Assembly: GCA_913020725.1 (NCBI GenBank)
Contig: CAJWCD010000039.1
Location: forward strand, 1 to 26,312
Reading direction: 5' to 3'
Length of the DNA: 26,312 nucleotides
Source: an uncultured Pseudomonadota bacterium
Lineage (GTDB): Bacteria; SAR324; NAC60-12
Position numbers and translations under genes: made by a program. The notes under the pieces are model-generated. The model was not told the origin of the DNA, did no database searches, and saw only the letters and a program-made list of their open reading frames with translations. Numbering within the stretch: position 1 is the stretch's first letter; each line of letters opens with the position of its first letter. Of this stretch, positions 666-26,312 are shown piece by piece.

Positions 666-3104
666 TCAGGCCCGCAGTTTGAGGTTTTCCGGGTCGCAGG
701 GAGATTCCGGAATCACGCGGGCAGGGCAACGCTCGCCAAGAATTTCCACCTCCAACTCAGTGCCGACTGCGGCGAACTCAGGCGGGACATAGCCGAGCGA
801 GAGGCTTTTGCCAATGGTGTGTCCATAGGCTCCGGAAGTGCCGCGTCCAATCATCGTACCGTTGTGGAAAATCGGTTCGCTGCCCAGCGGATCTGCATCG
901 GTCACATCCACCTCTAGCGTGACATAGTTGAGTGGCAAGCCCTGCTCCTGCTGCTTGAGCAGCGCGGCTTTTCCGGGGAATTCCTTGCCGAAATTGATGA
1001 AGCGCAGCAGTCCGGCTTCGAGCAGGCTGTACTCACGGGCGAGGTCCATGCCGATCATGCGGTAGGATTTTTCGATGCGCATGGACTCCATCGCGTATAT
1101 TCCAAAGTGGACCATGCCGAACTCCTGCCCCGCCTCACAGAGAGCGTCAAAAAGCTCAACTTGGCGGTTGATGGGGTGGTGCAGTTCCCAGCCGAGTTCG
1201 CCGACGAAGTTCACGCGCAACCCCAGCATCGGCACTCCTGCGACTTCAACGGGTTGCGAGGTCAGCCAGCGGAAACTAGTGTTGCTGAGATCAGTACCGG
1301 TGAGCTTGGAGAGCAGGTTTCTGGACTGTGGGCCGCAGACGACCAGCGCGCCGATTGCTGTGGTCATGTTCTCCAGCGCCACGCTGCCGTCATCCGGAAG
1401 CGACCGCAGCAGCACATCGTGGTCAATGCGCTCCGCCGCGCCCGCGCTGACGAGGTAGAAGGTGTCGTCGCCGGTGCGTGTGATTGTGAACTCGGATTCC
1501 ACTTCCCCCGCCTTGGTGAGCGCGTGGGCCAGCACAATGCCGCCGATCTGCTTGGGCAGACGGTTTGCGACAATCCCATCAAGCAAGGCTTCGGCTCCGG
1601 GGCCAGAGACCTTGTGTTTGGTGAACGGGGTCAGGTCGAGCAGCCCCACACGCTCGCGCACGGCCCGGCATTCTGCACCGACAACCTCAAACCAGTTGGT
1701 GCGGCGCGTGTGGAAGCTGTACTTGTTCTGCGGTGCCATGCCTTGCGGGGCAAACCAGTTGGGACGCTCCCAGCCGTAGCGTTGCCCGAAGGTGGCGTTG
1801 AGTGTTTTTTGGCGGTCGTAGATTGCGCTGGTCTTGGCCGGACGCGCCGCTAGCCGTTCCTCAAAATCGTAATGGATGACAAAAACGTGTTCGTAGGCTT
1901 CCTCGTTCTTTTCCTTGATGAAGTCGCGGCCGGACTGCGTGGCGCTGTAGCGGCGCGGATCGACTCCGGTCATGTCAATGCTTGGGTTGCCCTCGACGAT
2001 CCACTCCGCGAGAAATTTCCCGCCGCCGCCTGCTGCCGTGATTCCAAAGCTGTGCCCTTCTGAAAGCCAGAAGTTGCGCAATCCCCAGGCCGGGCCGATG
2101 ATCGGGTTGCCGTCCGGGGTGTAGGCAATGGGACCATTGACGGTTTGCTTGATTCCGGCATCTGCGAAGAGTGGCACACGATCCCCCGCAGCGAGGATGT
2201 GCGGTTCCAACCTCTCCAAATCCGGAGGCAGCAATTCCTGTCCGAAACCCTCCGGAACACCATCCAGCGCCCACGCTGGAGCGCCTTTTTCGTAGGGACC
2301 GAGGATCAGGCCATCCTGCTCTTGGCGCATGTAGTAGGAGGCGTCGCTCTCGCGCAAAACCGGCATTTCCGGATTGCCCGCACGATTGTAATCGGCAAGT
2401 TCCGGGATGGTGTCAGTGATGATGTACTGGTGTTCAACGGGCACCACCGGAAGTTCCAGTCCAACCATTCGCCCCGTCTGCCGAGCGTAATTTCCGGTGC
2501 AGGAAATCACGACCTCGCAGGTGACCTCCCCCTTGTCAGTGGAGACCACCCACTCGTCATTCGATTTTTGTTGAATGCCTGTGACTTCAGTTTGAGTGTA
2601 GATTTCGGCCCCCTGTGAGCGAGCGCCTTTGGCCATCGCCATCGTCACATCAACGGGGGCAACATGCCCATCGTCCGGATGAAAGAGTGCTCCGACGAGT
2701 CCCTCCGGGTTGATGAACGGCCAGGTTTTTTTGATCTCGTCAATGCCGAGCAGGTGGTAGTTGACCCCGACCGTGCTGGCGGTGCCGCAATAGCGTTTGT
2801 ACTCGTCCATGCGCTCCGAGTTCGTCGCCAGCCGCAAGTTGCCGTTTTTGTGCAGGCTGACGGGCTGTCCGGTTTCCGCTTCCAAAGATTCGTAGAGTTC
2901 GATGGTGTAGCGGTGGACCTTGCCAACGCTGTAACTCATGTTGAAGAGCGGCAGCAACCCGGCGGCGTGCCATGTCGAGCCGGAGGTCAAGTCCAGTTTC
3001 TCGAACAGCACGGTGTCCGTCCAGCCCAGCTTTGCCAAGTGGTACTGCACACTGACGCCCACGATGCCACCGCCGATGATCGCCGCTCGGTACTGTGTTT
3101 TCAT
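666..3104 (-). CDS. GcvT-family FAD-dependent oxidoreductase (dimethylglycine/sarcosine dehydrogenase-like), 812 aa
   Basis: N-terminal GGGIVG FAD motif, GSTWHAAG covalent-FAD His motif, YTPDGNP, GWERP, and a C-terminal folate-binding GcvT domain (GELGWELH, SMRIEKSY). RBS GAGG upstream. Confidence 0.92.
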   Translation of the reverse strand: MKTQYRAAIIGGGIVGVSVQYHLAKLGWTDTVLFEKLDLTSGSTWHAAGLLPLFNMSYSVGKVHRYTIELYESLEAETGQPVSLHKNGNLRLATNSERMDEYKRYCGTASTVGVNYHLLGIDEIKKTWPFINPEGLVGALFHPDDGHVAPVDVTMAMAKGARSQGAEIYTQTEVTGIQQKSNDEWVVSTDKGEVTCEVVISCTGNYARQTGRMVGLELPVVPVEHQYIITDTIPELADYNRAGNPEMPVLRESDASYYMRQEQDGLILGPYEKGAPAWALDGVPEGFGQELLPPDLERLEPHILAAGDRVPLFADAGIKQTVNGPIAYTPDGNPIIGPAWGLRNFWLSEGHSFGITAAGGGGKFLAEWIVEGNPSIDMTGVDPRRYSATQSGRDFIKEKNEEAYEHVFVIHYDFEERLAARPAKTSAIYDRQKTLNATFGQRYGWERPNWFAPQGMAPQNKYSFHTRRTNWFEVVGAECRAVRERVGLLDLTPFTKHKVSGPGAEALLDGIVANRLPKQIGGIVLAHALTKAGEVESEFTITRTGDDTFYLVSAGAAERIDHDVLLRSLPDDGSVALENMTTAIGALVVCGPQSRNLLSKLTGTDLSNTSFRWLTSQPVEVAGVPMLGLRVNFVGELGWELHHPINRQVELFDALCEAGQEFGMVHFGIYAMESMRIEKSYRMIGMDLAREYSLLEAGLLRFINFGKEFPGKAALLKQQEQGLPLNYVTLEVDVTDADPLGSEPIFHNGTMIGRGTSGAYGHTIGKSLSLGYVPPEFAAVGTELEVEILGERCPARVIPESPCDPENLKLRA

Positions 3105-3202
3105 TTTCGCCTCTGTTATTGGGAAATTAGGAACTATTGCATTACCGGGGTTGCCGTGTTGTCTAAATCAACGGCCCCGATGTTGTCACTTTTGCAGTAA
3201 AC

Positions 3203-3230
3203 ACTTTAATCCTGCCGGATTGCGCTTCAA
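3203..3230 (-). promoter_or_regulatory. Putative sigma70 promoter of the GcvT-family gene
   Basis: Minus strand TTGAAG-N16-TAAAGT, about 100 nt upstream of the ATG. Confidence 0.3.
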
Positions 3231-3466
3231 GCCAAGATCGCAGGATCGGAAATTTTTGTGGAGGACCGGAGGAGCGGTTCAGTTTATGGCGTCGGCGTCG
3301 CTGGTCTCGAACTTGGCGGCAAAGAACTGGCCGGAGGACTCCACGCCCAGGGCCACTTCGCCACCCCTACCATTCCTGAGTGCGCGGACCCAACGGGAAC
3401 ACCAACAAGCTCATCCACCCTGTTGCACTTACGAGTTGAATCCGCGCATTTTAACGACGATGCGAG

Positions 3467-5320
3467 TCAATCGAGGTCCTGCATGCCGATTGCTTCAAAG
3501 GTGGCGGGGGCCACGGTCATTGCCGGAGTTTCAGGGGTGGCCACGACAACATGGGGTGGAGTTTCGGGGGCAACGTCCATCAACAACAAGGCACGCTGCA
3601 TGATTTCCCGGAAGATCGGAGCGGCGGCTTTGCTGCCGTAGTGGTTGGGGCGTGGAGGTTCTTTAACCACAACCAAGGCTGTGAAAACGGGTTGGGAGGC
3701 TGGAGCAAACCCAACAAAAGATGCCCAGAATTTGGTGTTGGAGTAGCGCCCAAGGCTGGGGTCGAATTTTTGACTGGTGCCGGTTTTTCCAGCAATCTTG
3801 TAGCCCGGAATCGCCACCTTCGTGGCGGTGCCACCGCGTTCGGTGACAGAGACCATGAAGCGCGTGAGGATGCGGGCGATTGAGGTGTCGATGACGCGCC
3901 GAGGAGCCTTTGGCCCAAAGTGAGCCAGCACTGCTCCCGATTCATCGAAGAACTCGGTGTGTCGCTCTCCGGATTCATCTTCCATGTATTCAACGACGTA
4001 AGGGGGGCGCCACTCGCCCTCGTTGGCAATCGCATTGATCGCGGCCACCACTTGCAGCGGGGACGCCAAAATGCCTTGCCCATAGGAGAGGTTGGCATGG
4101 TCCACCCGTGTCCATTTTTCCGGAGGAAGCAGTTGGCCGGTCGCTTCACCGGGGAGTCCCGCACGGGTTTTTGCTCCAAAGCCAAACTTGGTGATGTAGT
4201 CGTGAAACTGTGCAGGCGTCATCTCCATGCCGATTTTCGCGGCACAAATATTCGACGATTTTTGAATGACTTGCCCCACCTCAAGGTTTCCGTGCGGTCG
4301 GCTGTCCCGGATCACCCTGTCGGCAACCTGAAACCGTCCCTCTTCACAGAAGAACTCCTGCGTGGGCGTGATGATCCCCTCATTCAGCGCGGAGGCCACC
4401 GTGATGACCTTGAAGGTGGAGCCGGGTTCATAGCCATGCGTGATTGCAGCGTTGACCTGCTGTGCGGCATCATATCGTCGGTAACGGTTGGGGTCGAAGT
4501 CCGGATAGTTTGCCAGCGCAAGAATCTGCCCGGTTGGGGCGTGCAGCACAATGGCCACTCCGGATTTGCCCTGAACGCGCTTGACGCCCTTGCGCAGGGC
4601 GCTTTCTGCAATATGCTGGAGGGTGGAGTCCAGCGTGAGGTGCAGGGTGTGCTGGTTGAACTCCCAACGCTCATCCCGGATTTCCGGGCGGGTCCGGAAC
4701 ATGCCTTCCTTTTCCACCACATACGCGACCTCTTCCCCGTGAAGCCAGCGGTTGTAGCCGTACTCCAAGCCCCCCAAACCCTGAGAATCAACTCCAGTGA
4801 AGCCGAGCAATGCCCCGGCGAGTTCTCCGGCGGGATAATACCTCCGGAACTCCGGAAGAAACTTCAGCCCGTCAATCTCCAGTTTCTGAATCTGCTGCAC
4901 CTGTTGCGGGGTGAGTTGACGCTTGATCCAGAGGAAGGGGGCTTTGGATTTCAGCTGGGCCGCGAGTTTCCTTGAGCTGGTTTTGAGGATTGGCGCCAGC
5001 CGCTTGGCCACTCGCTTGCGCTGCTTGAGTTGGGAGGGGTTGGTGTAGAGCGAGCCGACCGGAACCGACACCGCGAGGATGCGGCCATTGCGGTCGAAGA
5101 TTTTTCCGCGTCGGGGTTCGAGCCGCACCGTGCGCTGCTGCTGCATGCGGGCGCGTTTTTCAGAAGCAGGGCCTTGCAGGATTTGCAGATAGTAGGTGCG
5201 CCCCAGCACCGCCACCAGCACCATGCCCATCACGCCCAGCACCGTGAGCAGCCGGAAGTTGAAGCTGAAGCTTTCGTAATGCTCCGCTCCGGAGGGCCGT
5301 ACAGTTTTGGAATCCGCCAT
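3467..5320 (-). CDS. ftsI: Penicillin-binding protein 3 (septal transpeptidase)
   Basis: N-terminal TM anchor, PRRGKIFDRNG, RYYPAG, GLEY, EPGSTFK (SxxK), SSN (SxN), GKTGT (KTG). Directly follows an ftsL-like gene (TAATG overlap). Confidence 0.95.
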   Translation of the reverse strand: MADSKTVRPSGAEHYESFSFNFRLLTVLGVMGMVLVAVLGRTYYLQILQGPASEKRARMQQQRTVRLEPRRGKIFDRNGRILAVSVPVGSLYTNPSQLKQRKRVAKRLAPILKTSSRKLAAQLKSKAPFLWIKRQLTPQQVQQIQKLEIDGLKFLPEFRRYYPAGELAGALLGFTGVDSQGLGGLEYGYNRWLHGEEVAYVVEKEGMFRTRPEIRDERWEFNQHTLHLTLDSTLQHIAESALRKGVKRVQGKSGVAIVLHAPTGQILALANYPDFDPNRYRRYDAAQQVNAAITHGYEPGSTFKVITVASALNEGIITPTQEFFCEEGRFQVADRVIRDSRPHGNLEVGQVIQKSSNICAAKIGMEMTPAQFHDYITKFGFGAKTRAGLPGEATGQLLPPEKWTRVDHANLSYGQGILASPLQVVAAINAIANEGEWRPPYVVEYMEDESGERHTEFFDESGAVLAHFGPKAPRRVIDTSIARILTRFMVSVTERGGTATKVAIPGYKIAGKTGTSQKFDPSLGRYSNTKFWASFVGFAPASQPVFTALVVVKEPPRPNHYGSKAAAPIFREIMQRALLLMDVAPETPPHVVVATPETPAMTVAPATFEAIGMQDLD

Positions 5321-5721
5321 TACTCAGTGTAGGCGGTGGGGAGTGTTGTTGCAGGTGCAGCGAAATCGTTTTGTACCAGCCGCAGGATGCCGTGCTGTTC
5401 CAGCGAGGGCACGGAGAGGCCAAGGTGTTGGACGGCAAGGGCTTCCAGACGTTGTGGACGCGTGAGGTGCGTGATCTCGACTTCCAGTAAATCGAGCGTC
5501 AGCACCTGTTGCTCGCGCTCTTGCTCCAAACTCTGAATGCGGGTGCTGAGGTGGCGGACGTGGATCCACTGGGCAAGGTAGGTCATGCAACCCGCCGTGA
5601 GCAGCACGCTGACCAGCAGAGCAATTCGGAAGGAGCGAATCGTCAGCCAAAACACCTGTGGCACCAGCCACCAGCGAAACTGGCGTCGCAAAACTTTGGG
5701 GCGTCGGCGCACGATCTTCAC
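5320..5721 (-). CDS. ftsL: Cell division protein FtsL-like
   Basis: Basic N-terminus, one TM helix, leucine heptad coiled coil (IQSLEQEREQQVLTLDLLEVEITHL), and LTRPQRLEALAVQHLGL motif. Stop overlaps the ftsI start. Start codon uncertain (GTG 5721 chosen; ORF open to 5781). Confidence 0.8.
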   Translation of the reverse strand: MKIVRRRPKVLRRQFRWWLVPQVFWLTIRSFRIALLVSVLLTAGCMTYLAQWIHVRHLSTRIQSLEQEREQQVLTLDLLEVEITHLTRPQRLEALAVQHLGLSVPSLEQHGILRLVQNDFAAPATTLPTAYTE

Positions 5722-5837
5722 AGCACAATTGACGGAAAAACAGAGGTGGCACCCGCCTGCGGATTTGCTTGGAGAAACCAAGGCACTCCCGTTGCACGAA
5801 CCGTCCCAAACCGAGCAACTTCAACTGGAGAAAAAGA

Positions 5838-6248
5838 ATGCCTGTAACGTGGACAATGTTGGTGGCGGTGGGAACCGGAGGGGCGCTGGGCGCGGTGGCT
5901 CGTTTTGCGGTTTCGCGTCAGGTGAGCCTTTGGCTGGGCGCCGCGCTCCCGTGGGGGACGCTTGCGGTCAATGTGCTGGGGTCGTTTCTGCTGGGCTTTC
6001 TCGCGGCGTGGTTCCGGAGCCGCACGGAGTTGCCTCCAGAGTGGCAGGCCCTGTGGACGGTGGGTTTTCTGGGGGCGTTCACCACCTTCTCGACGTTCAG
6101 CAACGAGGTGGTTGGACTCCTGCAAGCCGATGCCAGTCTGCGGGCGCTCGCCACCATTGCGGCCAATGTCCTGCTTTGCCTCTGTTGCTGCTGGGGCGGC
6201 GTGTGGCTCGCCCGGAGTTTTGGAGCGGCGTTGAACGCCGCCGCTTAG
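5838..6248 (+). CDS. crcB: Fluoride channel Fluc/CrcB
   Basis: VGTGGALGAVARF, PWGTLAVNVLGSF and GFLGAFTTFSTF signature motifs. GGAG RBS at 5827-5830. Overlaps the ileS stop by 4 nt (convergent). Confidence 0.93.
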   Translation: MPVTWTMLVAVGTGGALGAVARFAVSRQVSLWLGAALPWGTLAVNVLGSFLLGFLAAWFRSRTELPPEWQALWTVGFLGAFTTFSTFSNEVVGLLQADASLRALATIAANVLLCLCCCWGGVWLARSFGAALNAAA

Positions 6249-9200
6249 GCTGCTACCGTCTTTTTGACGGTGATGCGGCAGACTTCGCCGTTGAGGTCCC
6301 ATGCGGTTCCTTCCGTGGAGTCCTGGGGTTCGAGGTGATCGCAGAGGGTTTCGGTGCAAATGAACCCGGAGTGTGCGTCCAGCGCGGACTGCACGTCCTC
6401 GGTGCTTTGGAAGCCCACCCGGATGCGATCCATCACATCAAGGTCCAAATCCTTGCGCATGTTCTGCACTTTGTTGACGAACTCCCGTGCCAATCCTTCC
6501 TGCACCAATTCCGGGGTCAGCGTGGTGTCGAGTGCCACGGAAAGTCGGTCGTCGGTTTCCACGAGCAAGCCCTCCTTCTGCTGACGCTGCACCAGAATCT
6601 CATCCGGGCCAAAATCCATCGACACGCCTGCGACTTCAACAGTAACGGAACCTCCGTTCAGTACCTTCTGAATTTGCTCCGGATTCAGTGAAGACAACGC
6701 TTGGGCGGCGGATTTCATCCGCTTGCCCAAACGCGGACCCAGCACTTTGAAGTTCGCCTTGGCACTGAGATCCACCAACCCACCCTCATCCGGAGTGACC
6801 TCCAGCGTCTTGACGTTGAGTTCATCGGAGATCAATTCGCCGAGTTCGTCAAGCACCTGTTGTGCTTCCGGGTCACGGGTGATCAGCGTTAGTTTGGGCA
6901 AGGGTTGCCGCACTTTAAGCTGGTGCTTGGCCCGCAGGGCACGACCCATTGTGACCGCAGCAAGCACGATGTCCATCTGTGCCTCCAACTCCGGAATCCG
7001 CAGTTGTGCATCAGGTTCCGGGAAGAGCGCGAGGTGAACGCTTTCCAGTTCGCCGTCACGGCGTAGCGTCCGGAAAATGCCATCTGCGATGAACGGAATG
7101 AAGGGCGCGATGACCTTGCTGAATTCCTGTAGCACTTTGTAGAGCGTCGCATAGGCTTGACGCTTGTCTTCGCCCTGTCCTGCTTTCCAGAAGCGGCGAC
7201 GGCTGCGGCGGATGTACCAGTTCGTGAGTAGGTCAATGAAACCCACAAAGGGCGCGACCGAGCGGTTGAGGTCGTAGAGGTCCATCTGCTTCTGCACCTC
7301 CGCGATCAGTCGCTGTAGGCATGAAAGAATCCAGCGGTCGAGTGCATTTTTCGCAGAAACCGCAAGGTTGTCATCCGTGGGTTCCCAACCGTCAATGCGG
7401 GCGTAGGTGGTGAGGAAGGCGAGGGCGTTCCAAAGTGGGAGCAGCAGTTGCCGGGTGGTTTCGATGAGCCCTTTTTCGCTGAAGCGCAAGTCCTCGCCGC
7501 GTACTGCTGGGCTGTTGAGCATGTAGAGCCGAATCGCATCAGCCCCATACTGATCCAGCATTTCGTTCGGGTCCGGGTAATTCTTGAGCCGTTTGCTCAT
7601 CTTCTTGCCGTCCTCGGCGAGGATCAGTCCGTTGACAATGCAGTTCTTGAACGCCGGGACGTCGAAGAGCGCGGAACCCAGCACCGCGAGTGTGTAGAAC
7701 CAACCCCGCGTTTGGTCGAGCCCTTCGCAGATGAAATCAGCAGGGAAGTTCGCCTCGAAGACCGTCTTGTTCTCGAAGGGATAATGCTCCTGCGCGTAGG
7801 GCATGGAACCGGACTCGAACCAGCAGTCGAGGACTTCCGGAATGCGGCGGTAGGTCTTGCCGTCGCGCTCAATGACCAAATCATCGACGTGCTGCTTGTG
7901 GAGGTCTGGAATCACTTGACCAACGGCACCCTCCAATTCCGCGACGCTGCCAAAGCAGAGGATGTCGCCGTCCTCGTTTTTCCAAATCGGCAGGGGGGTG
8001 CCCCAGAAACGATTGCGGCTGATCGCCCAGTCGCGTGCGTTTTCCAGCCACTTGCCAAAGCGCCCGTCGCGGATGTGTCCGGGCACCCAGTGGACCGTGC
8101 GGTTGTGCGCGACCATGCGCTCCTTGAACGCCTCGACGTTGACGAACCAAGTGGAGATCGGCTTGTAGATCAGTGGGGTGTCGGTGCGCCAGCAGAAGGG
8201 ATAGCTGTGCTGCACCGTCTCGTGCCGGAACATCTTCCCCTCCTCCTTGAGCCGCTGGACGATCGGCTTGTCGGCATCCTTGATGTTCAACCCGGCGATG
8301 AAGTCCGTGGACTCCCGGAAGTTGCCCTCGTCGTCAACAGGATCGAACACGGGCAGTCCTTCACGCTGGAAGATGCGCACGTCGTCCTCCCCGAAGCAGG
8401 CGAGATGCACCAAGCCCGTGCCGCTTTCTTCACTGACGTAATCGTCAAGCTGCACCGTCCATGCTTTGGAGGTGTCCACATGGTTTTTGGCAAAATCGAA
8501 GAGCGGCTCATAGCACATGCCCTGCAATGCTGTGCCCGGCATTTCCTCCAAAATTTCGTAGCTTCCGGACTCAAAATGTGCCTCGACCCGGTTTTTGACG
8601 AGGTAGTAGCAGGTGCCGCTTGCACACTCCCGGAGCTTGACATAAGTTAGCTCTGGACCCGCACAGAGTGCCATGTTCGAGGGCAGGGTCCACGGGGTGG
8701 TCGTCCATGCGAGCAAGTGGCTGTCCGGCTCACCGATCACCCGGAAGCGCAGGGTCACGGAGGGATCCTGCACGTCCTGATAGTTCAGGTTCGCCTCGAA
8801 GTTCGACAACGGGGTTGAAATGCGCCACGAGTAGGGGACGACCTTGAGTCCTTCGTAAATCAGCCCCTTGTCCCAAAGTTGCTTGAAGACCCACCAGACC
8901 GACTCCATGAAGTCTCGGTCCATCGTCTTGTAATCGTTGTCGAAATCCACCCAACGGGCCATGCGTTCCACAGTTTCCCGCCACTCGCTAGTGTAGCGCA
9001 GCACGATGGAGCGGCACTCCTCGTTGAAGTTCTCCACTCCGAATTTCTCGATCTCAGGACGACCCTTGAGTTTCAGCGCTTGCTCCACCTCGTACTCGAC
9101 GGGCAGGCCGTGCGTGTCCCAGCCAAAGCGACGCTCCACCCGGAAGCCGCGCATTGTCTTGTAGCGTGGGATCACGTCCTTGATGGTGCCTGCGAGCAAG

Positions 9201-9370
9201 TGTCCATAGTGCGGCAGGCCGGTCGCAAACGGCGGGCCATCGTAAAAGCTGAACGGCCGCTCCTGCGGACGCTGTTCGATGGATTTTTGGAAGATGCGCT
9301 GCTCCCGCCAAAAGCTTAGGAGGTCGCGTTCGAATTCAGGAAAGCTGATCTTGTTGGAAACGGGCTGCAT
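6245..9370 (-). CDS. ileS: Isoleucyl-tRNA synthetase, type 2
   Basis: FYDGPPFATGLPHYGH, GWDTHGLP, AWTTTPWTL, DWAISRNRFWGTP, EGLDQTRGWF, KMSKR. The C-terminal EGLAREFV..VQ..RK domain is typical of IleRS2. Confidence 0.97.
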   Translation of the reverse strand: MQPVSNKISFPEFERDLLSFWREQRIFQKSIEQRPQERPFSFYDGPPFATGLPHYGHLLAGTIKDVIPRYKTMRGFRVERRFGWDTHGLPVEYEVEQALKLKGRPEIEKFGVENFNEECRSIVLRYTSEWRETVERMARWVDFDNDYKTMDRDFMESVWWVFKQLWDKGLIYEGLKVVPYSWRISTPLSNFEANLNYQDVQDPSVTLRFRVIGEPDSHLLAWTTTPWTLPSNMALCAGPELTYVKLRECASGTCYYLVKNRVEAHFESGSYEILEEMPGTALQGMCYEPLFDFAKNHVDTSKAWTVQLDDYVSEESGTGLVHLACFGEDDVRIFQREGLPVFDPVDDEGNFRESTDFIAGLNIKDADKPIVQRLKEEGKMFRHETVQHSYPFCWRTDTPLIYKPISTWFVNVEAFKERMVAHNRTVHWVPGHIRDGRFGKWLENARDWAISRNRFWGTPLPIWKNEDGDILCFGSVAELEGAVGQVIPDLHKQHVDDLVIERDGKTYRRIPEVLDCWFESGSMPYAQEHYPFENKTVFEANFPADFICEGLDQTRGWFYTLAVLGSALFDVPAFKNCIVNGLILAEDGKKMSKRLKNYPDPNEMLDQYGADAIRLYMLNSPAVRGEDLRFSEKGLIETTRQLLLPLWNALAFLTTYARIDGWEPTDDNLAVSAKNALDRWILSCLQRLIAEVQKQMDLYDLNRSVAPFVGFIDLLTNWYIRRSRRRFWKAGQGEDKRQAYATLYKVLQEFSKVIAPFIPFIADGIFRTLRRDGELESVHLALFPEPDAQLRIPELEAQMDIVLAAVTMGRALRAKHQLKVRQPLPKLTLITRDPEAQQVLDELGELISDELNVKTLEVTPDEGGLVDLSAKANFKVLGPRLGKRMKSAAQALSSLNPEQIQKVLNGGSVTVEVAGVSMDFGPDEILVQRQQKEGLLVETDDRLSVALDTTLTPELVQEGLAREFVNKVQNMRKDLDLDVMDRIRVGFQSTEDVQSALDAHSGFICTETLCDHLEPQDSTEGTAWDLNGEVCRITVKKTVAA

Positions 9371-9412
9371 GGGTGTGGAAATGGATTCGGAACCAGACTC
9401 AGGAAAACAATC

Positions 9413-9441
9413 AGGCTACAAATCCCGCCTCCGGATGACAA
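9413..9441 (-). promoter_or_regulatory. Putative sigma70 promoter of ileS
   Basis: Minus strand TTGTCA-N17-TAGCCT, about 40 nt upstream of the ATG. Confidence 0.45.
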
Positions 9442-9603
9442 GCCAATTTGGGGTGAGTGTGTTGAATGCGGGTGCAAGTAAGAGTGAGATTTTTTGTCGG
9501 TAATGGCTACTCAGTACATGGCAGGTTGTATTTGACGATGAATGGGGGCTTGGCTCTAAGTCCGATCATCTTCAGAATTCTTACAGAGCCACGTCGTATT
9601 TTT

Positions 9604-17944: not shown

Positions 17945-18056
17945 ATTAACCCTTGACTCCAAATTGAAGAATGATAACTCTATTGTCTGTTAGATTCGAA
18001 ACTGCACGAATGCAGTGCGGTTTTTCTCAACTTTTCCCTTAAATCAGGAGAAACTC

Positions 18057-19424
18057 ATGCGCAAGGAACAAGAACTGCTCTACCAAGAGGAATTGCGGCA
18101 GCAGTTGCTGAACGGCGAGATCGACCGCCGGGAATTCCTCTCTCGAACCATGACCGCCGGACTAGGATTGGCCGGAGTGGGAGTTGCGGCGAACTTTGGG
18201 ACCGGAGTGGCCCACGCAGCACGACCGCTGACCCCGACCTTCTACCAATGGATCGAGGATTTGCATCCGGGCATTCCGAAGGTGAATTCACGGTTCCCAG
18301 ATGTGAATTACCAGATTGCTCCTGTGGAGGGGTTCGGGATTGAACGCTTTGTTGCTGAAGCCAAGAAGGGCAAGAGTACCTGGGACGTCTATGTTGGTCA
18401 GACTCCGTTCGTCGAGATGACCGCGATGATTGAGGCGGATGTGATCGAGCCATGGGACGATTACATTCCAAGGGATGTCCTCAATGACATTATCCCTTCG
18501 ATTCGTGAGGAGTGCACGATCAACGGCAAGCTCTACGGTTGGCCTTTCCTGTTGGATGTGATCGGCATGAGCTGGCACTCGGGTATTACGTCCAAAGCAG
18601 GCTTGCCCGCTGACCCCCCTGCAACATGGCAGGATTACTTGGCCCGTTCTCAACAAATCGTGGATTCCAAGACGGCTTTGTTTGGCGCGACCTTTGATGC
18701 ACACGGTTGGCGCTCGCTCGCTCCCTTCACACATAGCTTAACCCGTGATGCCTACACGTCCGATGGTCTGTTCGATTTTACTGGAGACGCAGCCATTGAA
18801 GCCTTAATATTGATGAAGAACATCATGCGGGATGCGAATCCGGACATCCTGCTTGCCGGTGCCTCGGATGGTGGAGTGAACGGAACTCCGGACGAAGTGG
18901 CCTTTTCGACCCAGCGGGTGGGGTATTACACCAAATACTTCAACGCACCGCTGCGGATGGCCCAGTATTGGGACAACCCCAAGGATCTGAAACTGGGACC
19001 GCTGCCAAAGTTTGCTGGCGGAGAAGGTTCCACCGTGTTCTGGACCACGGGTGCAGCCTTGTTCAAGCACGGACAGAACAAGGAAAAAGCTGCCGAGTAT
19101 GTCAAGGCTCTGACCTATGACATGCAGATCTGGAAGGATTCCATTGCCGGAACTTCCACCGGGCACCCAGGACATTTGCCTCCCTACAAGTCCATCTATG
19201 CCAAGTGGGCCGCGAACAAGCCCTCCTGGCTCCCTGATTTTGTCGGACTCGTCCGTGGGCAGCTTGATGAGGCCAAGGCCATCCCCAACCACCTCTTTGG
19301 ACTCCAGCAGTTCATCATCGGACAGCCGGTCTGGGAGACTTACCTCAAGGGAGAAGAGAAAAATCCACGGGTTGCAATGCAGAACGCGATGGATGCGGTT
19401 CGTGCTGAAATGAAGCGCGGATAA
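18057..19424 (+). CDS. Sugar ABC transporter substrate-binding protein with Tat signal
   Basis: AGGAG RBS before ATG 18057. Twin-arginine motif IDRREFL, hydrophobic stretch and AHA cleavage site. CUT1 SBP-like motifs (NGKLYGWP, PATWQD). Confidence 0.82.
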   Translation: MRKEQELLYQEELRQQLLNGEIDRREFLSRTMTAGLGLAGVGVAANFGTGVAHAARPLTPTFYQWIEDLHPGIPKVNSRFPDVNYQIAPVEGFGIERFVAEAKKGKSTWDVYVGQTPFVEMTAMIEADVIEPWDDYIPRDVLNDIIPSIREECTINGKLYGWPFLLDVIGMSWHSGITSKAGLPADPPATWQDYLARSQQIVDSKTALFGATFDAHGWRSLAPFTHSLTRDAYTSDGLFDFTGDAAIEALILMKNIMRDANPDILLAGASDGGVNGTPDEVAFSTQRVGYYTKYFNAPLRMAQYWDNPKDLKLGPLPKFAGGEGSTVFWTTGAALFKHGQNKEKAAEYVKALTYDMQIWKDSIAGTSTGHPGHLPPYKSIYAKWAANKPSWLPDFVGLVRGQLDEAKAIPNHLFGLQQFIIGQPVWETYLKGEEKNPRVAMQNAMDAVRAEMKRG

Positions 19425-19443
19425 GCTAATCCAAGATTTGGAG

Positions 19444-19470
19444 AAGGGACAGCCTTCGCTGTCCCTTTTC
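19444..19470 (+). terminator. Stem-loop/intrinsic terminator after the SBP gene
   Basis: AAGGGACAGC-CTTC-GCTGTCCCTT followed by TT: a perfect 10-bp stem with a short U tract, likely a partial terminator or mRNA stabiliser. Confidence 0.7.
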
Positions 19471-19503
19471 TAGCTTGCCTCCTGCCGACAGGGTTGAGAC
19501 ACA

Positions 19504-20478
19504 ATGAACCGTCGGCTTCATCAAAGCAAAGTTGATGCTTCCGTGACAGCAATAGCAATCCCATCTGTTGGAATGGCCAAACGGAGTTTGTTTGGACTGC
19601 AATTCAGCACTTGGACTTTTTTGCTTCCCGCACTTTTGTTCTTTGTCGGATATCAGGTCTTTCCTATCATCCGCGTCGTCTGGCTCAGTTTCACTGATTT
19701 CAAGTACCTCACCAATGATCCTGCCAACTGGGTCGGACTGGCCAATTATGCGGAAGCCCTCAGTGATCCTCTGATGTGGAAAAGCCTAGGCAGGGCCGCA
19801 TATTTCACGCTCATGTTCCTGCCCGGAACCATCATCTTCCCTTTGTTGCTTGCCATCTTGGTTGACCGTGTTGAAGGCCAGCGCTTGTCCACCTTTTATC
19901 GAGTCATCCTGCTGCTCCCTGCGGTCATTCCAAGCACTCTGGTGTTTGTGTTGTGGAAATGGATGTACAATTACCAGATTGGACCCATCAATCACTTTTT
20001 GGTTGAGGTCATGGGGTGGTTCACTTACCGGAACGCGCCTCAGTGGCTTGGAGGCACCCCGTTGACCCTGCCTTCGGTGGCCGTCATGGAGGTCTGGTGG
20101 GGACTGGGGTATCACAGCATCTTTTTTCTTGCCGGACTCGCTGCGATTCCTAAGGATCTGCCTGAAGCCGCTCGTGTGGACGGTGCGAGTGAATGGCAAG
20201 TCTTTTGGCATATCACTCGACCCCGGCTACAGCCGATCATGCTCATTCTCGTGGTCCTGCGCTTCGGCACGGCCATGGCTGTGATTGATGAATACCTGAT
20301 TTTTGGCGGCTTCAACCGTGCTTCACCAACCTACACTTGGACGGTGTTCATGTACGATCAGGCCTTTAAGATCGGACTCTGGCGTCAAGGATTCGCATCA
20401 GCAATCGGCATGATAGGAGCCTTGGTGATGATGTGCTTTGTAGCTTTCCTGATTTACGTTTTCCGTTCCAAGGATTGA
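19504..20478 (+). CDS. Carbohydrate ABC transporter permease (CUT1, first)
   Basis: FLLPALL, WVGLANY, LAGLAAIP..LPEAARVDGAS (EAA loop). Alternative start ATG 19573. Confidence 0.9.
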   Translation: MNRRLHQSKVDASVTAIAIPSVGMAKRSLFGLQFSTWTFLLPALLFFVGYQVFPIIRVVWLSFTDFKYLTNDPANWVGLANYAEALSDPLMWKSLGRAAYFTLMFLPGTIIFPLLLAILVDRVEGQRLSTFYRVILLLPAVIPSTLVFVLWKWMYNYQIGPINHFLVEVMGWFTYRNAPQWLGGTPLTLPSVAVMEVWWGLGYHSIFFLAGLAAIPKDLPEAARVDGASEWQVFWHITRPRLQPIMLILVVLRFGTAMAVIDEYLIFGGFNRASPTYTWTVFMYDQAFKIGLWRQGFASAIGMIGALVMMCFVAFLIYVFRSKD

Positions 20479-20485
20479 GGAGGAG

Positions 20486-21361
20486 ATGTCTGCGACCACC
20501 CACGAGAATCCCTATCTGAAGAAGAAACTCGCACGTCAGCGTCGCAATGCGGTGATCCAGCATGGCGTGATCATTTTCTTTTTACTGAGTATTTTGCTTC
20601 CTCTGAGTTGGGTTTTGCTGCTTTCGGTCAAATCCCTCCCGGATTCCATGCGTGGGAGCCTCTGGCCCCGGCGTTTTGATTTCTCGCATTATGGCTATGT
20701 TTTCGATAAAATTGGAACGCTGCCCACGAACTTTTTCAACAGCATTTATGTCACCGGGGCGACGGTGTTGATCACCACCTTCTGTGCCGTTCTGGCAGGC
20801 TACGCTCTGGTTCATCTCAAACCCCGTGGAGGCGCATTCATTGTCGCCATGTTTCTCTCTTCTCTCTACTTCCCGACACGCGTGGTTTCAGTCATCAGCA
20901 TTTATGAAATCCAAGATTATTTTGAGTTGATCAACAGCACCAGTGGCTTAATTCTGCCCTACATCACTTTGAATCTGGCGATTAGCGTACTGATCATGCG
21001 CAGTATTTTTCAGTTGGTTCCCCATGAACTGATCGATGCTGCCCGCATTGATGGTGCGGGTCCGTGGAGGACACTGTGGGTGGTTGGTCTGCCGCTCGCC
21101 AAAAACGGACTTGTGGTGGTGATCATTGTCAATTTTGTCACAGCGTGGGGGGAATACCTGCTTGCTACGACACTGACCAACGATCAGGCCGTGAGAACCA
21201 TGCCCGTGGTGCTGGCCGCCGCACAGGGAGGCATGGGGCAGTGGGCCTGGCCCCGTATCGCCGCAGTTTATGTGCTGGTGGTCCTGCCAGGGATCATTGC
21301 GTTCACCTTCGCCCAGCGCCTCTTTTTCAAGGGACTCATGGACGGTGCACTGAAGACCTGA
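20486..21361 (+). CDS. Carbohydrate ABC transporter permease (CUT1, second)
   Basis: AGYAL, ELIDAARIDGAG, FVTAWGEY, QRLFFKGLMDGALK. GAGGAG RBS. Confidence 0.92.
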   Translation: MSATTHENPYLKKKLARQRRNAVIQHGVIIFFLLSILLPLSWVLLLSVKSLPDSMRGSLWPRRFDFSHYGYVFDKIGTLPTNFFNSIYVTGATVLITTFCAVLAGYALVHLKPRGGAFIVAMFLSSLYFPTRVVSVISIYEIQDYFELINSTSGLILPYITLNLAISVLIMRSIFQLVPHELIDAARIDGAGPWRTLWVVGLPLAKNGLVVVIIVNFVTAWGEYLLATTLTNDQAVRTMPVVLAAAQGGMGQWAWPRIAAVYVLVVLPGIIAFTFAQRLFFKGLMDGALKT

Positions 21362-21434
21362 TCAGCCCTTGGGCTTTCAACCCGAACAAAGCAGACGGTC
21401 GTCCACTGCGGCTCCTTGCTGAATCCAGTTTCAT

Positions 21435-22442
21435 ATGGCTTTTGCACCAGTCAGAATGGGTGTGGTTGGAACAGGGCGTTTCGGTTCTCTCCATGCTTTG
21501 ACAATCAATGGTTTGGCCGAATCGGATTTGGTGGCCTTGGTGGACAGCGTTCCCGCCAGTCTGGATCGTTTACCACCCGAACTCTCAGACATCTCGAAAT
21601 TTACCGATCTTGACGAGGCAATAGCCGAAACCGGTGCAGAAGCTTGGATTGTCGCCTCGTCCACGGCTTCCCATGTGCCGGTTGCAGGCAAGTTACTGGC
21701 ATCGGGATCTGCGGTTTTGTTGGAGAAACCGCTGGCCGACAGCCTGAACGAGGCAATCAAGCTTTCCGAACTGGCGGACGCAAACCCAGAACGCCTGATG
21801 CTTGGCCACCTCTTGCTCTTCAACAGCGAATTCCAGGGTTTGAAAGCCGAGTGTCGCCGTCGAGGCTCTTTCCGCTATGCCTCATGTTACCGGATGCGGC
21901 CAACTCGGCATGCCAATGATTATCCAGGGGAAACTCCGTTTCACCTCACAATGGTTCATGATCTTTACTGCATCCAATCCTTGGTGAACGCCGAAGATCC
22001 ACTGTATTATCACGCTCAAAAACACGTCACTTCCCTGGGGAACATAGATTTGGCACTGGCCCAACTGCAATGGGCTGATGGCAGGTTGGCGACTTTTGCC
22101 GCAGGGTTTCTTACACCAGAGGGGATGTCCGGGGAAGGGTTTGACCGCATGGAAGTTTACGGTGACGGGTGGTTTGCTCGTTTATCGCCCAACCCGCGTC
22201 CGCTGGAAGTGTGGGCCGAACGTTATGTTCCGCCGTTGACTCTTGAAATCCAAACCGATCCCGGTCATCCCAGCGGCATGCTGGCCGAAGAACTGCGCTG
22301 CTTCTGTCAAGTTGTCAGAGGTCTGGAACCCGTCCCTGCCGGAGCGCGCTATGCTGATGGGGTTCAAGTGATGCGCTGGCTGGAAAGACTGTTCGAGGCG
22401 GCTGAACAGGGGCACGGCTCACAGCATGGGGAGACCGAGTGA
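21435..22442 (+). CDS. Gfo/Idh/MocA-family NAD(P)-dependent oxidoreductase
   Basis: VVGTGRFG Rossmann motif, LLEKP, MVHD. Confidence 0.88.
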   Translation: MAFAPVRMGVVGTGRFGSLHALTINGLAESDLVALVDSVPASLDRLPPELSDISKFTDLDEAIAETGAEAWIVASSTASHVPVAGKLLASGSAVLLEKPLADSLNEAIKLSELADANPERLMLGHLLLFNSEFQGLKAECRRRGSFRYASCYRMRPTRHANDYPGETPFHLTMVHDLYCIQSLVNAEDPLYYHAQKHVTSLGNIDLALAQLQWADGRLATFAAGFLTPEGMSGEGFDRMEVYGDGWFARLSPNPRPLEVWAERYVPPLTLEIQTDPGHPSGMLAEELRCFCQVVRGLEPVPAGARYADGVQVMRWLERLFEAAEQGHGSQHGETE

Positions 22443-23293
22443 GATCATTTGCGCGGGCAGACGCCCACGTTCACCTCTTTGAAGGTAGCTATCAGGGGAA
22501 CTCGTTCACCCGGCGTCCGGGTGTTTTGATCGATGAAGTCCTTTGTTACCAATCGTTGATGCAGGAGTACCAGATCCAAGCTGCCTTGGTGATAGGCTTT
22601 GCCGGAGAAAGCTGGTGTGCAGAAAACAACGGTTTCCTTGCTGAGTTGATCCCGCGCTGTTCATGGATGCAGGCCCTTGCCTACTGGGATCTGAATTCGG
22701 ACAGAGATCCCCTCGAACAATTGGAAGAATGGCGCGGGCAGGGATTCATTGGAATCAGCCTGTATGTTTTCGAAAAACTGGAGATTCAGGGTCTGGCTGG
22801 AATTAAAGACGAGGTTTGGAACTGGCTTGAGTGCAATGGCTGGCTAATCAGCGTCAACTCATCCGGGGGTCGCTGGAGCTTGTGGAAGCCGATTCTGGAA
22901 AAACATCCGAGGTTGAGACTAGCCGCCTCCCATCTGGGTCTGCCTTCCAAGTTTTCGAGGACGCCTTCACGGGATGAGGCTTTCAAGATGATGTCGCCGT
23001 TGAACGAGCTATACGAGTTCCCAGAAGTGCATGTCAAACTCAGTGGCTATTATGCCCTCACCGATCCCGCGCATGATTTTCCCCACGAAGCCGCTTGGCC
23101 CGTGACGGAAGTGATCCTGAAACATTTTGGATCCGAGCGGCTTCTGTGGGGAAGCGACTTTTCGCCTTGCCTGGATTTTCTTTCCTTCCCGCAGACTTAC
23201 GGACTGTTCTCGAAGATGCCTTTTTTCAATGAGGAGGATCGGGAAAAAATACTGGGAGGAAATCTCCTGAGACTGATTGGAGGCGAAGCATGA
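22439..23293 (+). CDS. Amidohydrolase_2-family protein (sugar lactonase-like)
   Basis: DAHVH, SHLGLP, VKLSG, FGSERLLWGSDF. GTGA start/stop overlap with the upstream gene. Confidence 0.85.
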   Translation: MRSFARADAHVHLFEGSYQGNSFTRRPGVLIDEVLCYQSLMQEYQIQAALVIGFAGESWCAENNGFLAELIPRCSWMQALAYWDLNSDRDPLEQLEEWRGQGFIGISLYVFEKLEIQGLAGIKDEVWNWLECNGWLISVNSSGGRWSLWKPILEKHPRLRLAASHLGLPSKFSRTPSRDEAFKMMSPLNELYEFPEVHVKLSGYYALTDPAHDFPHEAAWPVTEVILKHFGSERLLWGSDFSPCLDFLSFPQTYGLFSKMPFFNEEDREKILGGNLLRLIGGEA

Positions 23294-23328
23294 TTTTCGC
23301 ATTCGCAAGGGTGTGGGGTGAACGCAGT

Positions 23329-24114
23329 TCATTTCCCGATGATATCTTGGATCATCCGGAAATTGCCTGCGGTCAACCCGCCATCCACGGTCAGGGAGGT
23401 ACCATTGACAAACCCGGCTTCATCCGCACTGAGGAAGGCCACTGCGGCCGCGATGTCCTCCGGTTGCCCCACCCTGCCCTGCGGGTACCAGCTTTTTACC
23501 AGCTCAAGTACTTCTGGACGCGCCTCCACACGGTGACGCCAAACCGGCGTTTCCACCGTCCCCGGAAGCACGGCATTGCTGCGGATTCCTTTGGGCCCGT
23601 ATCCGATTGCTAGTGTTTGTGTGAAAGAAATCAGTCCGGCCTTGGCTGCGCTGTAGGCGGGATTTCCGAGGGCTTGAATAGCGTTCACGGAGGAGACATT
23701 GGTAATCACTCCGCGGCCTTGTGCAACCATGCCGGAGAGGACCAGACGTGTCAGTACAAAATGCGCGGTCAAGTTCAGCGCGAGGTCCGCATTCCAACTC
23801 TCTAACGTCGTCTCTTCATAATCCTCACTGAAGGCTCCCCCGGCATTGTTGACCAGCACATCAACGTGTCCCAAAGTTTCCAGCACTTTTGCAAACGCTC
23901 CTTCCACTGCGTTTTCATCCGTCAAATCCGCTTCGACAAAAAGTGCAAGTCGCCCCAAGTGTGTCAACTCGTTTTCAACAGTCTTACCCGTTTCCACGTT
24001 GCGGTCGATGAACACCAGTTTCGCTCCTTCGGAAGTAAGCCGATGGCAGATGGCCAAGCCGATGCCCGAAGCACCGCCGGTCACAAGCACGTTTTTATGC
24101 TCAAAGCGTTTCAT
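23329..24114 (-). CDS. Classical short-chain dehydrogenase/reductase
   Basis: TGGASGIG, VNNAG, YSAAK, PG, VDGG. GGAG RBS before ATG 24114. Confidence 0.92.
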   Translation of the reverse strand: MKRFEHKNVLVTGGASGIGLAICHRLTSEGAKLVFIDRNVETGKTVENELTHLGRLALFVEADLTDENAVEGAFAKVLETLGHVDVLVNNAGGAFSEDYEETTLESWNADLALNLTAHFVLTRLVLSGMVAQGRGVITNVSSVNAIQALGNPAYSAAKAGLISFTQTLAIGYGPKGIRSNAVLPGTVETPVWRHRVEARPEVLELVKSWYPQGRVGQPEDIAAAVAFLSADEAGFVNGTSLTVDGGLTAGNFRMIQDIIGK

Positions 24115-24166
24115 GACAAATCTCCAGAAGTATTGAACGCTAAAACTGACATGGTTCCTCCTATCA

Positions 24167-24742: not shown

Positions 24743-24749
24743 GGTCGCC

Positions 24750-25415
24750 TCACGCGAGAATCTTCTCTCCGAGTTTGCGGGTCTCCTCCTCGCTGCGCCG
24801 TTCCGGACGCGGCGGAATCGTGATGCCCTTGGCACACGCCGGGCGTTCTTCCAGCGTGGCGCACCAGCGGCTCACATTTGCTAGGTCCGCGATTTCTACC
24901 CCCGCCCACTTGTGAATCCGCACCCACGGCCAGGTGGCGATGTCCGCAATCGAGTACTCTCCCGCCAAAAATTCCCGATCCGCCAAGCACGTGTCCAGCA
25001 CCTCGTAAAGCCGCCGCACCTCGCGCTGGTAGCGGTCAATGGCGTAGGGGATTTTTTCTGGAGCATAGCGGAAGAAGACGTGCGCCTGCCCCTGCATCGG
25101 CCCCACCCCGCCCATCTGAAACATCAGCCACTGCATCACTTCCGAACGCGGCTTGGGGTCGGCAGGGAGCAACTGCCCGGACTTTTCCGCAAGGTAGATC
25201 AGAATGGCCCCGGACTCCATCACGGCAAAGTCCTCGCAGTCGTGATCAATGATGGCCGGAATGCGCCCGTTTGGGTTGATTGCCAGAAACTCCGGCTGCT
25301 TTTGTTCCCGGCTGGAGAGGTCGAAAATCACCGTTTTGTAGGGGAGTCCGATTTCCTCCAGCATGATGGAAACCTTGTGGCCGTTTGGCGTGGGGGCGGT
25401 GTAGAGTGTGATCAT
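24750..25415 (-). CDS. yfcG: Glutathione S-transferase, Nu class (YfcG-like)
   Basis: [55 protein letters not shown]. Confidence 0.85.
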
Positions 25416-25688
25416 GCGGGCACCTTGAGGGCTTGGGGTTGAAGTTTTGACTGTCCGGAACTTCCGGAGGCAAACAGAGAGGCGTTGCGCCACCTCCATT
25501 CTTACACTAGCTTGACCAAATGGGAAGCCTACTGCTTCCTCAAGCTTCCATCTAGTTGTGGACGAGGTTAGTGATTATGCGGAAGCGGTGGAGAGCAAGC
25601 TGGAAATTCGCTGGATTCCTTTGTAGAATTTGAGTTTGGGATTCCCTTTATCCAAACGCAACCCGTACCCAACCCCAAAAGAAACACG

Positions 25689-26211
25689 ATGAAAAAAGTG
25701 ATCACCCTGTGTTGTGCGGCCTTACTGCTGCCGAGCTTTGTCTTCGGCCCTCTGCCCGTGGGGGAAAAACCTTCGCAGGTGGTGCTGGAGGGCGATCAGG
25801 GCAATCGCGTCAATGGTGGTTCGTGGAGCAGCGATGAACTGGTCGGAGCAGTTCATGTGCTGTTCTATGTTGATCCGGACGAAAGCGACCTCAACAATGC
25901 TGCCAGCGACGCGCTCAAGGCGGAACACTTTGACAAAGCGCAGTACCGCTCGGTGGCCATCATCAACATGGATGCGACGTGACTGCCCAACGCAGTGCTC
26001 CAAATGCGGCTGGAGAGCAAGCAGGAGGAGTACCCTCCGAACGATTTATGTGCGGGACAACCAGATTGCTGGTGGAGAAGTTGGGACTTGGCGGACGACA
26101 GCAGCGACATCGTGCTGTTCGACCGCGATGGCACGGTGCTGTTCAGTGTCGATGGACAACTCACGGAAGTGCAAATCCAAGAGTTGCTGGGGCTGATCCG
26201 AGAGCGGATGA
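25689..26211 (+). pseudogene. YtfJ-family periplasmic protein, disrupted (TGA plus local frameshifts; may be sequencing error)
   Basis: Signal peptide, WSSDEL, VLFYVDPD, VAIINMDAT*LPN, KQEEYP / TIYVRD / LLVEK / WDLADDSSDIVLFDRDG..LF..DGQL. TGA at 25980-25982 where Trp is expected. Three frame changes at about 26037-26082 return to the original frame. 3' end approximate. Confidence 0.7.
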
Positions 26212-26217
26212 ACGGAT

Positions 26218-26312
26218 TCAGGCGGCAGAATCCTGAAGTTCCATACGAGCGGCAACTGCAAGTTCATCGGCGCGGTCGTTCTCCGGATGCCCGGCGTGGC
26301 CCTTCACCCAAC
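26218..26312 (-). CDS. rnhA: Ribonuclease HI, C-terminal 30 aa (5' part beyond the window)
   Basis: Minus strand reads [30 protein letters not shown], the canonical RNase HI C-terminal motif. Not in the ORF track. Confidence 0.9.

Follow-up and report, generated by a model that had tools for sequence, protein, structure and literature searches.

Why should a stretch of bacterial DNA carry one palindromic hexamer, TCCGGA, many times more often than its composition predicts, and what keeps the copies in place? The question is raised by a contig of 26,312 nucleotides from an uncultured SAR324 bacterium of the NAC60-12 lineage (CAJWCD010000039.1; assembly GCA_913020725.1), hereafter the window, which is contig C39 of a 3.45-Mb assembly (93.3% complete; 204 contigs, the longest of 92,563 bases). 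An earlier note had counted about 54 sites by hand, against about eight expected, and had suggested that either a methyltransferase or repair bias or a DNA-binding system may maintain them. We find that the copies obey a spacing rule with a helical period, in this genome and, with reversed sign, in related genera, and that the motif is probably kept by weak selection for the sites of a putative symmetric DNA-binding protein whose bound copies interact.

An exact search of the window found 55 TCCGGA sites, from position 706 to 26287, including all 11 that the note had listed; 100 dinucleotide shuffles gave a mean of 8.88 and a maximum of 18, and none reached 55. Ten sites stand in codon phase 0, 13 in phase 1 and 27 in phase 2, and five lie outside called genes, two of which (25454 and 25463) fall inside a longer open reading frame (ORF; 24750–25499) if an upstream ATG is used. 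The phases that the note had read for the site at 831 (phase 0) and for those at 4843 and 4851 in ftsI (phases 1 and 2) were right. The enrichment is not local, an alternative that the note had held against its own claim: it is lineage-wide (see below) and genome-wide, with 1.2–3.0 sites per kb in all 125 contigs of at least 10 kb, and TCCGGA is the top hexamer by frequency in the genome (7,675 copies in 3,446,541 bases, 2.23 per kb). The ratio of observed to expected counts (O/E) was 7.35, 6.51, 3.37, 2.43 and 1.00 under Markov models of order 0 to 4, respectively. Among palindromic hexamers only TCCGGA stands far above expectation; most G+C-rich palindromes are strongly depleted, and CCCGGG, GCCGGC and ACCGGT are avoided. 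The motif has no fixed octamer extension, the best flank being a T at 36%.

The distances between copies follow the helix. Counted from start to start, TCCGGA pairs number 0–6 per distance at 20–23, 30–33 and 41–43 bp and 13–28 at 25–28 and 36–38 bp, 17 being expected, with 38 in-phase (same-face) pairs vs. 250 out-of-phase pairs. The fit gave a period of 10.56 bp with phase 0, troughs at whole turns and a decay of 41 bp (twice the log-likelihood difference, 169). Under two nulls that preserve the encoded proteins, 233 ± 13.5 and 187 ± 11 in-phase pairs were expected and 61 were found; the depletion is present in all three frame relations and in pairs outside single genes (5 in-phase vs. 30 out-of-phase). 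The z score for in-phase against out-of-phase pairs was −12.5 for TCCGGA, vs. a mean of −0.01 (standard deviation 1.06) over 320 words without CCGG, none of which shows the rule. No A/T periodicity was found in the TCCGGA flanks.

The same rule governs which places are filled. Where the protein permits a TCCGGA, the site is present in 6,996 of 21,095 places (33%), and the average odds ratio relative to neutral is 5.8. With a same-face neighbour at 19–45 bp, occupancy is 67/808 (0.083; odds ratio 1.1), as against 272/728 (0.374; odds ratio 7.2) with an opposite-face neighbour; the in-phase odds ratio recovers to 3.3 at 46–70 bp and to 4.8 at 71–100 bp. In the sharpest troughs, occupancy lies below neutral (23/495, or 0.046 vs. 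0.075); each pair enters these and our other neighbour-dependent occupancy counts twice, and the neutral level of 0.075–0.079 is our estimate, made from codon use outside CCGG contexts. In phase, then, occupancy is close to neutral, and a second same-face site is for the most part of no value rather than clearly harmful. Spacings of 8–10 bp are unaffected (occupancy 0.357, equal to the average), and would be tolerated if overlapping footprints act as one site.

For comparison we used 79 genomes of the phylum, at least 70% complete; here G000 is the genome of the window, G001 and G002 are its congeners in genus g1, and g2, g3, g5 and g12 are other genera, g12 being a sister genus of g1. The rich genera hold 1.4–2.2 (g1, three genomes), 2.2–2.9 (g2, three), 0.6–2.1 (g12, 14) and 0.7–1.1 (g5, three) TCCGGA per kb, and the seven genomes of the motif-poor g3 hold 0.13–0.24. 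Pairs at 30–33 vs. 36–39 bp number 20 vs. 187 in g1 (all three genomes), 1,071 vs. 273 in g12 (the same direction in 14/14 genomes, 7 vs. 6 in the weakest) and 85 vs. 39 in g5. In-phase occupancy is 0/42 in G001 and 2/43 in G002, and is reversed in the genome G019, where 166/281 places (0.59) are filled in phase vs. 18/106 (0.17) out of phase; in 789 kb of G019, pair peaks lie at 21, 30–33 and 41–42 bp, with a period of 10.4 bp and a phase of 2 degrees. In a first sample of 12 rich genomes, in-phase pairs ranged from 0.06 to 6.1 times the Poisson expectation and the 36–39-bp class from 0.4 to 2.1 times (genome sizes rounded); the enrichment of same-face pairs in g12 reaches 6-fold. Between genera the same-face class changes; the phase does not. 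Kin genomes are not independent, and the comparison perhaps amounts to three or four independent contrasts.

The unit that is enriched is graded. The note had seen a sharp hexamer and had counted an O/E near 1 under a fourth-order model as evidence against it; the value of 1.00 leaves the sharp hexamer without its footing. The ratio is 1.00 because the enrichment factorises into half-sites, and we take it as the mark of a graded site rather than of an absent signal, because the hexamer supplies much of the CCGGA pentamer (15,350 of 29,918 occurrences) and because the amplitude of the spacing effect ranks the hexamer above the half-site (0.42 for hexamer pairs, 0.20 for a hexamer and a half-site, 0.06 for half-site pairs). 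The hexamer over the half-site product, from a fit made without the four palindromic cells, is 1.31 in G000, 0.71 in G001 and 1.28 in G002, and 1.68–2.23 in samples of three other genera. CCCGGA is also 2-fold enriched, the grading being TCCGGA, then CCCGGA, then the other one-off words, and the Gly codon of this genome is GGA in 57% of cases after NCC, in 59% after TCC and in 22% elsewhere. Enrichment that multiplies over half-sites would be expected of a binding site with roughly independent positions. The spacing effect is graded likewise: the in-phase/out-of-phase ratio of words placed relative to TCCGGA is 0.15 for TCCGGA itself, 0.34 for CCCGGA, 0.71 for TCCAGA, 0.73 for ACCGGA and 0.83 for GCCGGA, with TCCGAA between 0.71 and 0.83, about 1 for CCGG words with neither flank (CCCGGC, 1.04), 1.18 for TCCGCA and 0.97 for TCAGGA. 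Because the two best words are the same in spacing effect and in abundance, these data point to one cause.

The note had argued from sites in all codon phases and in intergenic DNA that amino acid bias alone does not account for the motif, and this was borne out. In synonymous shuffles of 2,784 genes (from our own gene caller) TCCGGA ranked first, with an O/E of 3.41 (3.58, 1.96 and 4.25 in the three phases), and the 521 intergenic copies give an order-2 O/E of 2.59, the highest of the intergenic hexamers. Occupancy is even over classes of G+C content, is reduced to 0.25 in CCWGG-rich genes, and is slightly reduced, to 0.26, in genes with codon usage like that of a cluster of 20 small basic ORFs, taken to be the ribosomal-protein operon. 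None of the 44 tRNA genes contains TCCGGA; in this genome, promoters show no specific enrichment, and density falls near start codons. The dipeptide Pro-Glu is the top dipeptide of this genome (O/E 1.67) and Ser-Gly reaches 1.49. The motif more likely drives the dipeptide than the reverse, because Pro-Glu is higher in five motif-rich genomes (1.63–1.69) than in small samples of two poor ones (1.17–1.24). In 35 ortholog pairs between G000 and the genome G015, Pro-Glu stood 70 times in G000 only and 36 times in G015 only, a weak test in which the control dipeptides lean alike (Ala-Gly, 51 vs. 29; Glu-Pro, 35 vs. 20).

Sites are also conserved, as the note had suggested checking in relatives. A plain Jaccard measure put them no more than moderately high (rank 24 of 1,016 and 145 of 1,228), and we therefore used a codon-matched test on 297 kb and 217 kb, out of 400 and 330 kb retrieved, which align to the two congeners at 82% and 89% identity. 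Synonymous third-position change within sites, relative to the same codon outside, was 0.59 and 0.46 for G002 and 0.76 and 0.47 for G001, and all gene-bootstrap intervals were below 0.85. A pure gain bias predicts a ratio of 1.00; symmetric selection or a symmetric repair drive predicts 0.37–0.51. In seawater contigs from four runs, among the 40 differences listed of 427, one creates TCCGGA and none destroys it, which is too few to bear on selection.

We then asked what protein might write or read the motif. No match to PF00145 (C5 methyltransferases) or to PF03852 (Vsr) was found in this 93.3% complete genome, the controls being positive in both cases; C5 methyltransferases were absent from 3/3 g1 genomes and gave weak partial matches only in 2/14 g12 genomes. 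For type I HsdM there was one partial match, and a search for EcoRII-C (0/39) was uninformative, its controls being silent too. What we did find is an orphan amino-methyltransferase (G000:C49, 579 amino acids; L081:514–2253, minus strand) with a long charged N-terminal extension, present as a single copy in 48 of the 79 genomes (with a few split matches): 31/39 genomes of the family, 17/18 of the sister family f2 and 0/22 of the others. It occurs in 6/7 of the motif-poor g3 genomes and does not track the motif; together with the absence of PF00145 and PF03852 matches, this leaves the methyltransferase or repair bias that the note had proposed without support. SPPY is the mark of N4-cytosine enzymes. 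Motif IV starts with Ser in 86 of 91 aligned homologues (it reads SPPY in g2), whereas the three g1 genomes have Asn, Cys or Arg instead (NPPY, for example); it is altered also in genera g4, g5 and g7 (9 of 29 orthologs, from 30 loci). The remainder of the gene is under purifying selection (ratio of nonsynonymous to synonymous substitution rates, 0.05 for G000/G001), and none of its neighbours is conserved beyond 10 of 30 loci. A structure model (pLDDT 91) matched the tRNA methyltransferase Trm11 and Dam about equally (template modelling scores of 0.34–0.35), and the Atlas clusters are unnamed methyltransferases. If the motif IV Ser is required, its replacement would rule the protein out as the simple writer in g1, and it is possibly a pseudo-enzyme. 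Of six genomes, only those of g1 show strong avoidance of CCWGG (order-3 O/E of 0.21, 0.21 and 0.38 vs. 0.82–0.95); the genome G006 shares the altered methyltransferase motif with g1 yet keeps CCWGG. A ribbon–helix–helix (RHH_1) match in G000 is a 79-residue protein that we read as antitoxin-like, with no match in G019 or in the genome G020.

The branch of the earlier proposal that the spacing data favour is the DNA-binding one. We think it probable that an abundant symmetric protein binds TCCGGA, each site giving a small advantage (scaled selection of about 1.2–1.8), and that its bound copies interact on one face of the helix; a second same-face site would be occluded or redundant in g1, whereas in g12 it would nucleate cooperative assembly. 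Both signs could come from a single geometry if the strength of binding has changed, g1 being the genus that tolerates half-sites most and avoids pairs most; the likely job of the protein would be chromosome organisation, by bending or bridging. It is quite possible, although we would not call it probable, that a sequence-specific chromosome-organising protein of SAR324 bacteria reads TCCGGA at thousands of sites, with an interaction whose sign has been rewritten by branch, same-face pairs being favoured, worthless or, in one branch, the word itself almost purged. One remote candidate for the reader is the orphan methyltransferase, in a catalytically decayed form.

Several results weigh against selection for such sites. 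Divergence looks alike under selection and under a repair process that makes sites as well as protecting them, and a fall of in-phase occupancy to about neutral, not clearly below, is also expected of a blocked site-writing enzyme; the neutral level to which it falls is, moreover, our estimate, and the pairs behind it are counted twice. Taken raw, the order-4 ratio of 1.00 is adverse. Genus g2 is mixed at 30–33/36–39 bp (70/64, 31/87 and 128/87), a 400-kb sample of G006 gave an occupancy of 7/68 in phase vs. 6/36, without the in-phase excess of the whole genome (48 vs. 14), and six related genomes underlie the link of half-site tolerance to pair avoidance. Nor did a reader emerge: besides the silent Vsr search, neither SeqA (PF03925; E. 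coli control positive) nor a histone scored over the cut-off in any of five genomes, and HU/IHF is present in 5/5, motif-rich and motif-poor alike.

Under selection and repair alike, some factor has to sense two sites together. In a methylation- or repair-directed drive (an Elhai-type ratchet), mismatches would be resolved towards TCCGG on either strand and sites would have no fitness value; the phase rule would arise because a nearby site blocks the enzyme in g1 and recruits it in g12. We consider this rather unlikely, although a good deal agrees with it: the factorisation into half-sites fits a ratchet that works strand by strand, as described in the accessible text of PMC4390886, the loss ratio expected of a symmetric drive equals that expected of selection, in-phase occupancy drops to about neutral, and the orphan methyltransferase is vertically inherited. 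Set against this are the lack of Vsr and, but for the weak partial matches in g12, of C5 methyltransferases, the presence of the orphan enzyme in g3 and f2 genomes, the replacement of its motif IV serine in g1, fold matches that leave the substrate ambiguous, and the sharpest troughs, which lie below neutral; the ratchet as published saturates over about 1 kb and has, in the accessible text, no helical term.

A specific reader would not be required if the word itself bends or stiffens DNA and phased copies sum to a curvature that is disfavoured in g1 and favoured in g12. Relaxed B-DNA has such a period (10.56 bp) and such a decay (about 40 bp). Such an effect of DNA mechanics alone is nevertheless very unlikely, as the rule is sharply sequence-specific (CCCGGC, TCCGCA and TCAGGA lack it), the flanks have no A/T periodicity, and in-phase pairs vary about 100-fold between genera, with out-of-phase pairs at 0.4–2.1 of expectation. 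Uptake bias can make sites accumulate. A DNA-uptake or recombination signal, as proposed for the cyanobacterial motif HIP1 in the accessible text of PMC13756078, would suit a motif that is dispersed, gene-independent, lineage-wide and low in foreign-looking DNA; we find it just as hard to credit, since uptake by itself predicts neither the 10.5-bp pair rule nor its reversal and a graded 6-bp site holds little lineage information. The least credible account derives TCCGGA from a bias in codons, dipeptides or protein structure, or from the avoidance of other CCGG palindromes. The high Pro-Glu and Ser-Gly ratios, the avoidance of CCCGGG, GCCGGC and ACCGGT and the order-4 ratio can be cited for it, and it is already contradicted by the shuffles that fix the proteins, which enrichment and phasing outlast, by the spacing nulls and by occupancy; the top rank in intergenic DNA and the difference in Pro-Glu between rich and poor genomes tell the same way, and G020 and G019 are motif-rich without strong avoidance of the other palindromes.

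How, then, does TCCGGA compare with known systems? TCCGGA-specific restriction–modification systems exist (BspEI, Kpn2I, AccIII). They share the hexamer, and three genomes of another family of the class avoid TCCGGA strongly and keep GCCGGG; restriction, however, depletes its own site, whereas TCCGGA is here the top hexamer and there is no C5 methyltransferase. That family, f7, has nearly purged the word (267 copies in G081, 76 in G082, 15 in G083, 31 in G079 and 25 in G080; genomes of 3.1–3.7 Mb). G081–G083 retain GCCGGG (1,470–3,230 per strand), G081 and G083 lose the half-site TCCGGG in a graded way, and G079 and G080 avoid both other tested CCGG words too; the purge may be the mirror image of this genome or, possibly, ordinary restriction avoidance. 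In the accessible text of the HIP papers (PMC4390886; PMC5861425; PMC13756078), HIP1 (GCGATCGC) and the alternate HIPs of cyanobacteria are, like TCCGGA, dispersed palindromes in genic and intergenic DNA, at 0.2–2.7 per kb, conserved beyond the codon level, with one-off variants favoured and slightly lower frequency in codon-biased genes. TCCGGA exceeds the HIP threshold of at least 0.2 per kb genome-wide and stays below that of at least 16-fold over a second-order Markov model (PMC5861425), which was set for octamers. HIP1 octamers are 16- to 317-fold enriched in the accessible text of that paper; TCCGGA is a hexamer, 3.4-fold enriched at order 2, with graded half-sites, and our sequence searches demonstrated no cognate methyltransferase. 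A further difference is the pair rule, which has a period of 10.5 bp and reverses from one genus to another, in contrast to the period of 10–90 kb reported for HIP1 in the accessible text; the main texts of PMC5861425 and PMC13756078 never use the word "helical", and that of PMC4390886 does not contain TCCGGA. TCCGGA works like HIP1, yet we do not file it as a HIP1 member because of the missed 16-fold threshold and the lack of a demonstrated methyltransferase.

For the Dam/GATC/SeqA system of Gammaproteobacteria, the accessible text of PMC2691817 and PMC2912659 describes a dimeric reader that prefers same-face GATC pairs and for which gaps near 10 or 20 bp, and below about 50 bp, are favoured in vivo, and that of PMC2912659 attributes the genome-wide periodicity of GATC spacing to codon usage. 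The pair preference resembles the g12 pattern (21, 31 and 42 bp); same-face pairs within about 50 bp are preferred in g12 and avoided in this genome. TCCGGA differs from Dam/SeqA in that the five genomes have no SeqA match and no Dam-like target is shown, in that the sequence of the entire genome carries the phase rule, and in that the same-face preference is reversed in g1. The text and supplements of two marine methylome papers (PMC8919816; PMC9516812) do not name SAR324, whose genomes may be labelled otherwise there, and the literature searched, which left aside most subscription papers and the supplements of the HIP papers and of preprints, where a motif table could list the word, held no paper on a TCCGGA motif in SAR324.

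Within the window, the features that bear on the motif are as follows.

706–26287: 55 dispersed TCCGGA sites, 2.1 per kb, a local sample of the genome-wide motif
2221–2256: TCCGGA pair 30 bp apart (2.84 turns)
4843–4856: two TCCGGA sites 8 bp apart in ftsI
6245–9370, minus strand: ileS; named closest relatives are SAR324 cluster bacteria (70–74% identity)
9430–9435: intergenic TCCGGA upstream of ileS
9912 and 16005: TCCGGA sites also outside called genes
12436–12479: TCCGGA pair 38 bp apart (3.6 turns), of the allowed opposite-face class
18893–23354: TCCGGA-free gap, 4,468 bp between site starts, the third longest in the genome

Of the nine pairs of the window at 19–100 bp, only that at 2221–2256 lies within 0.17 turn of a whole number. 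The gap at 18893–23354 has a G+C content of 0.533 and 1.79 CCWGG per kb (vs. about 0.5 genome-wide), and encodes sugar ABC permeases, an oxidoreductase and a lactonase-like gene; it is likely a recent, unameliorated acquisition, and the density of the motif may help to flag newly acquired DNA in this lineage. IleS (6245–9370) is of the long type and scores below the cut-off on MupA/MupB-like models, and ftsL–ftsI (3467–5781) adjoin ileS, away from the remaining division gene cluster. Besides the relatives of IleS, a protein labelled SAR324 that shares 98% identity with the product of one gene of this genome bears on its placement.

The motif is also frequent in some DNA from elsewhere. Three Victivallaceae ileS loci (L009, L016 and L021) hold 1.4–1.9 TCCGGA per kb; eight Lentisphaeria ileS loci pooled gave an order-2 O/E of 1.17, with no phase signal in 125 kb. 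A complete viral contig of 110 kb (L311; IMGVR_UViG_3300037308_000217) carries 319 copies (2.9 per kb) and none of the control word, with an order-4 O/E of 2.24 in the 20 kb analysed; no link of this contig to SAR324 was found. Low-G+C viral contigs (L321–L325, L286, L289 and L341) show a 12- to 18-fold order-1 enrichment, and in the L322 record 72 of 148 copies in 127 kb are clustered in 11.6 kb. Among 85 viral loci, a biased set chosen by a triple-site pattern, none matched G000 by blastn, and 17 compared by blastp gave three weak matches.

After three decades the function of HIP1 is still open, and TCCGGA is a comparable genome-wide palindrome in another phylum, with a measurable handle added: a 10.5-bp pair rule, the strength and sign of which differ between close genera. 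The 79 genomes provide a natural phylogenetic contrast, pairs at 21 or 32 bp vs. 26 or 37 bp are exact probes for a reader, and the same simple pair test is applicable to HIP1 and GATC. If a protein stands behind the motif, a single DNA-binding factor would have changed, in an abundant ocean lineage, one in three of the eligible codon positions and apparently dipeptide use too; the genome sequence would then record a binding-cooperativity curve at base-pair resolution, and the protein sequences of these bacteria would be bent towards Pro-Glu and Ser-Gly.

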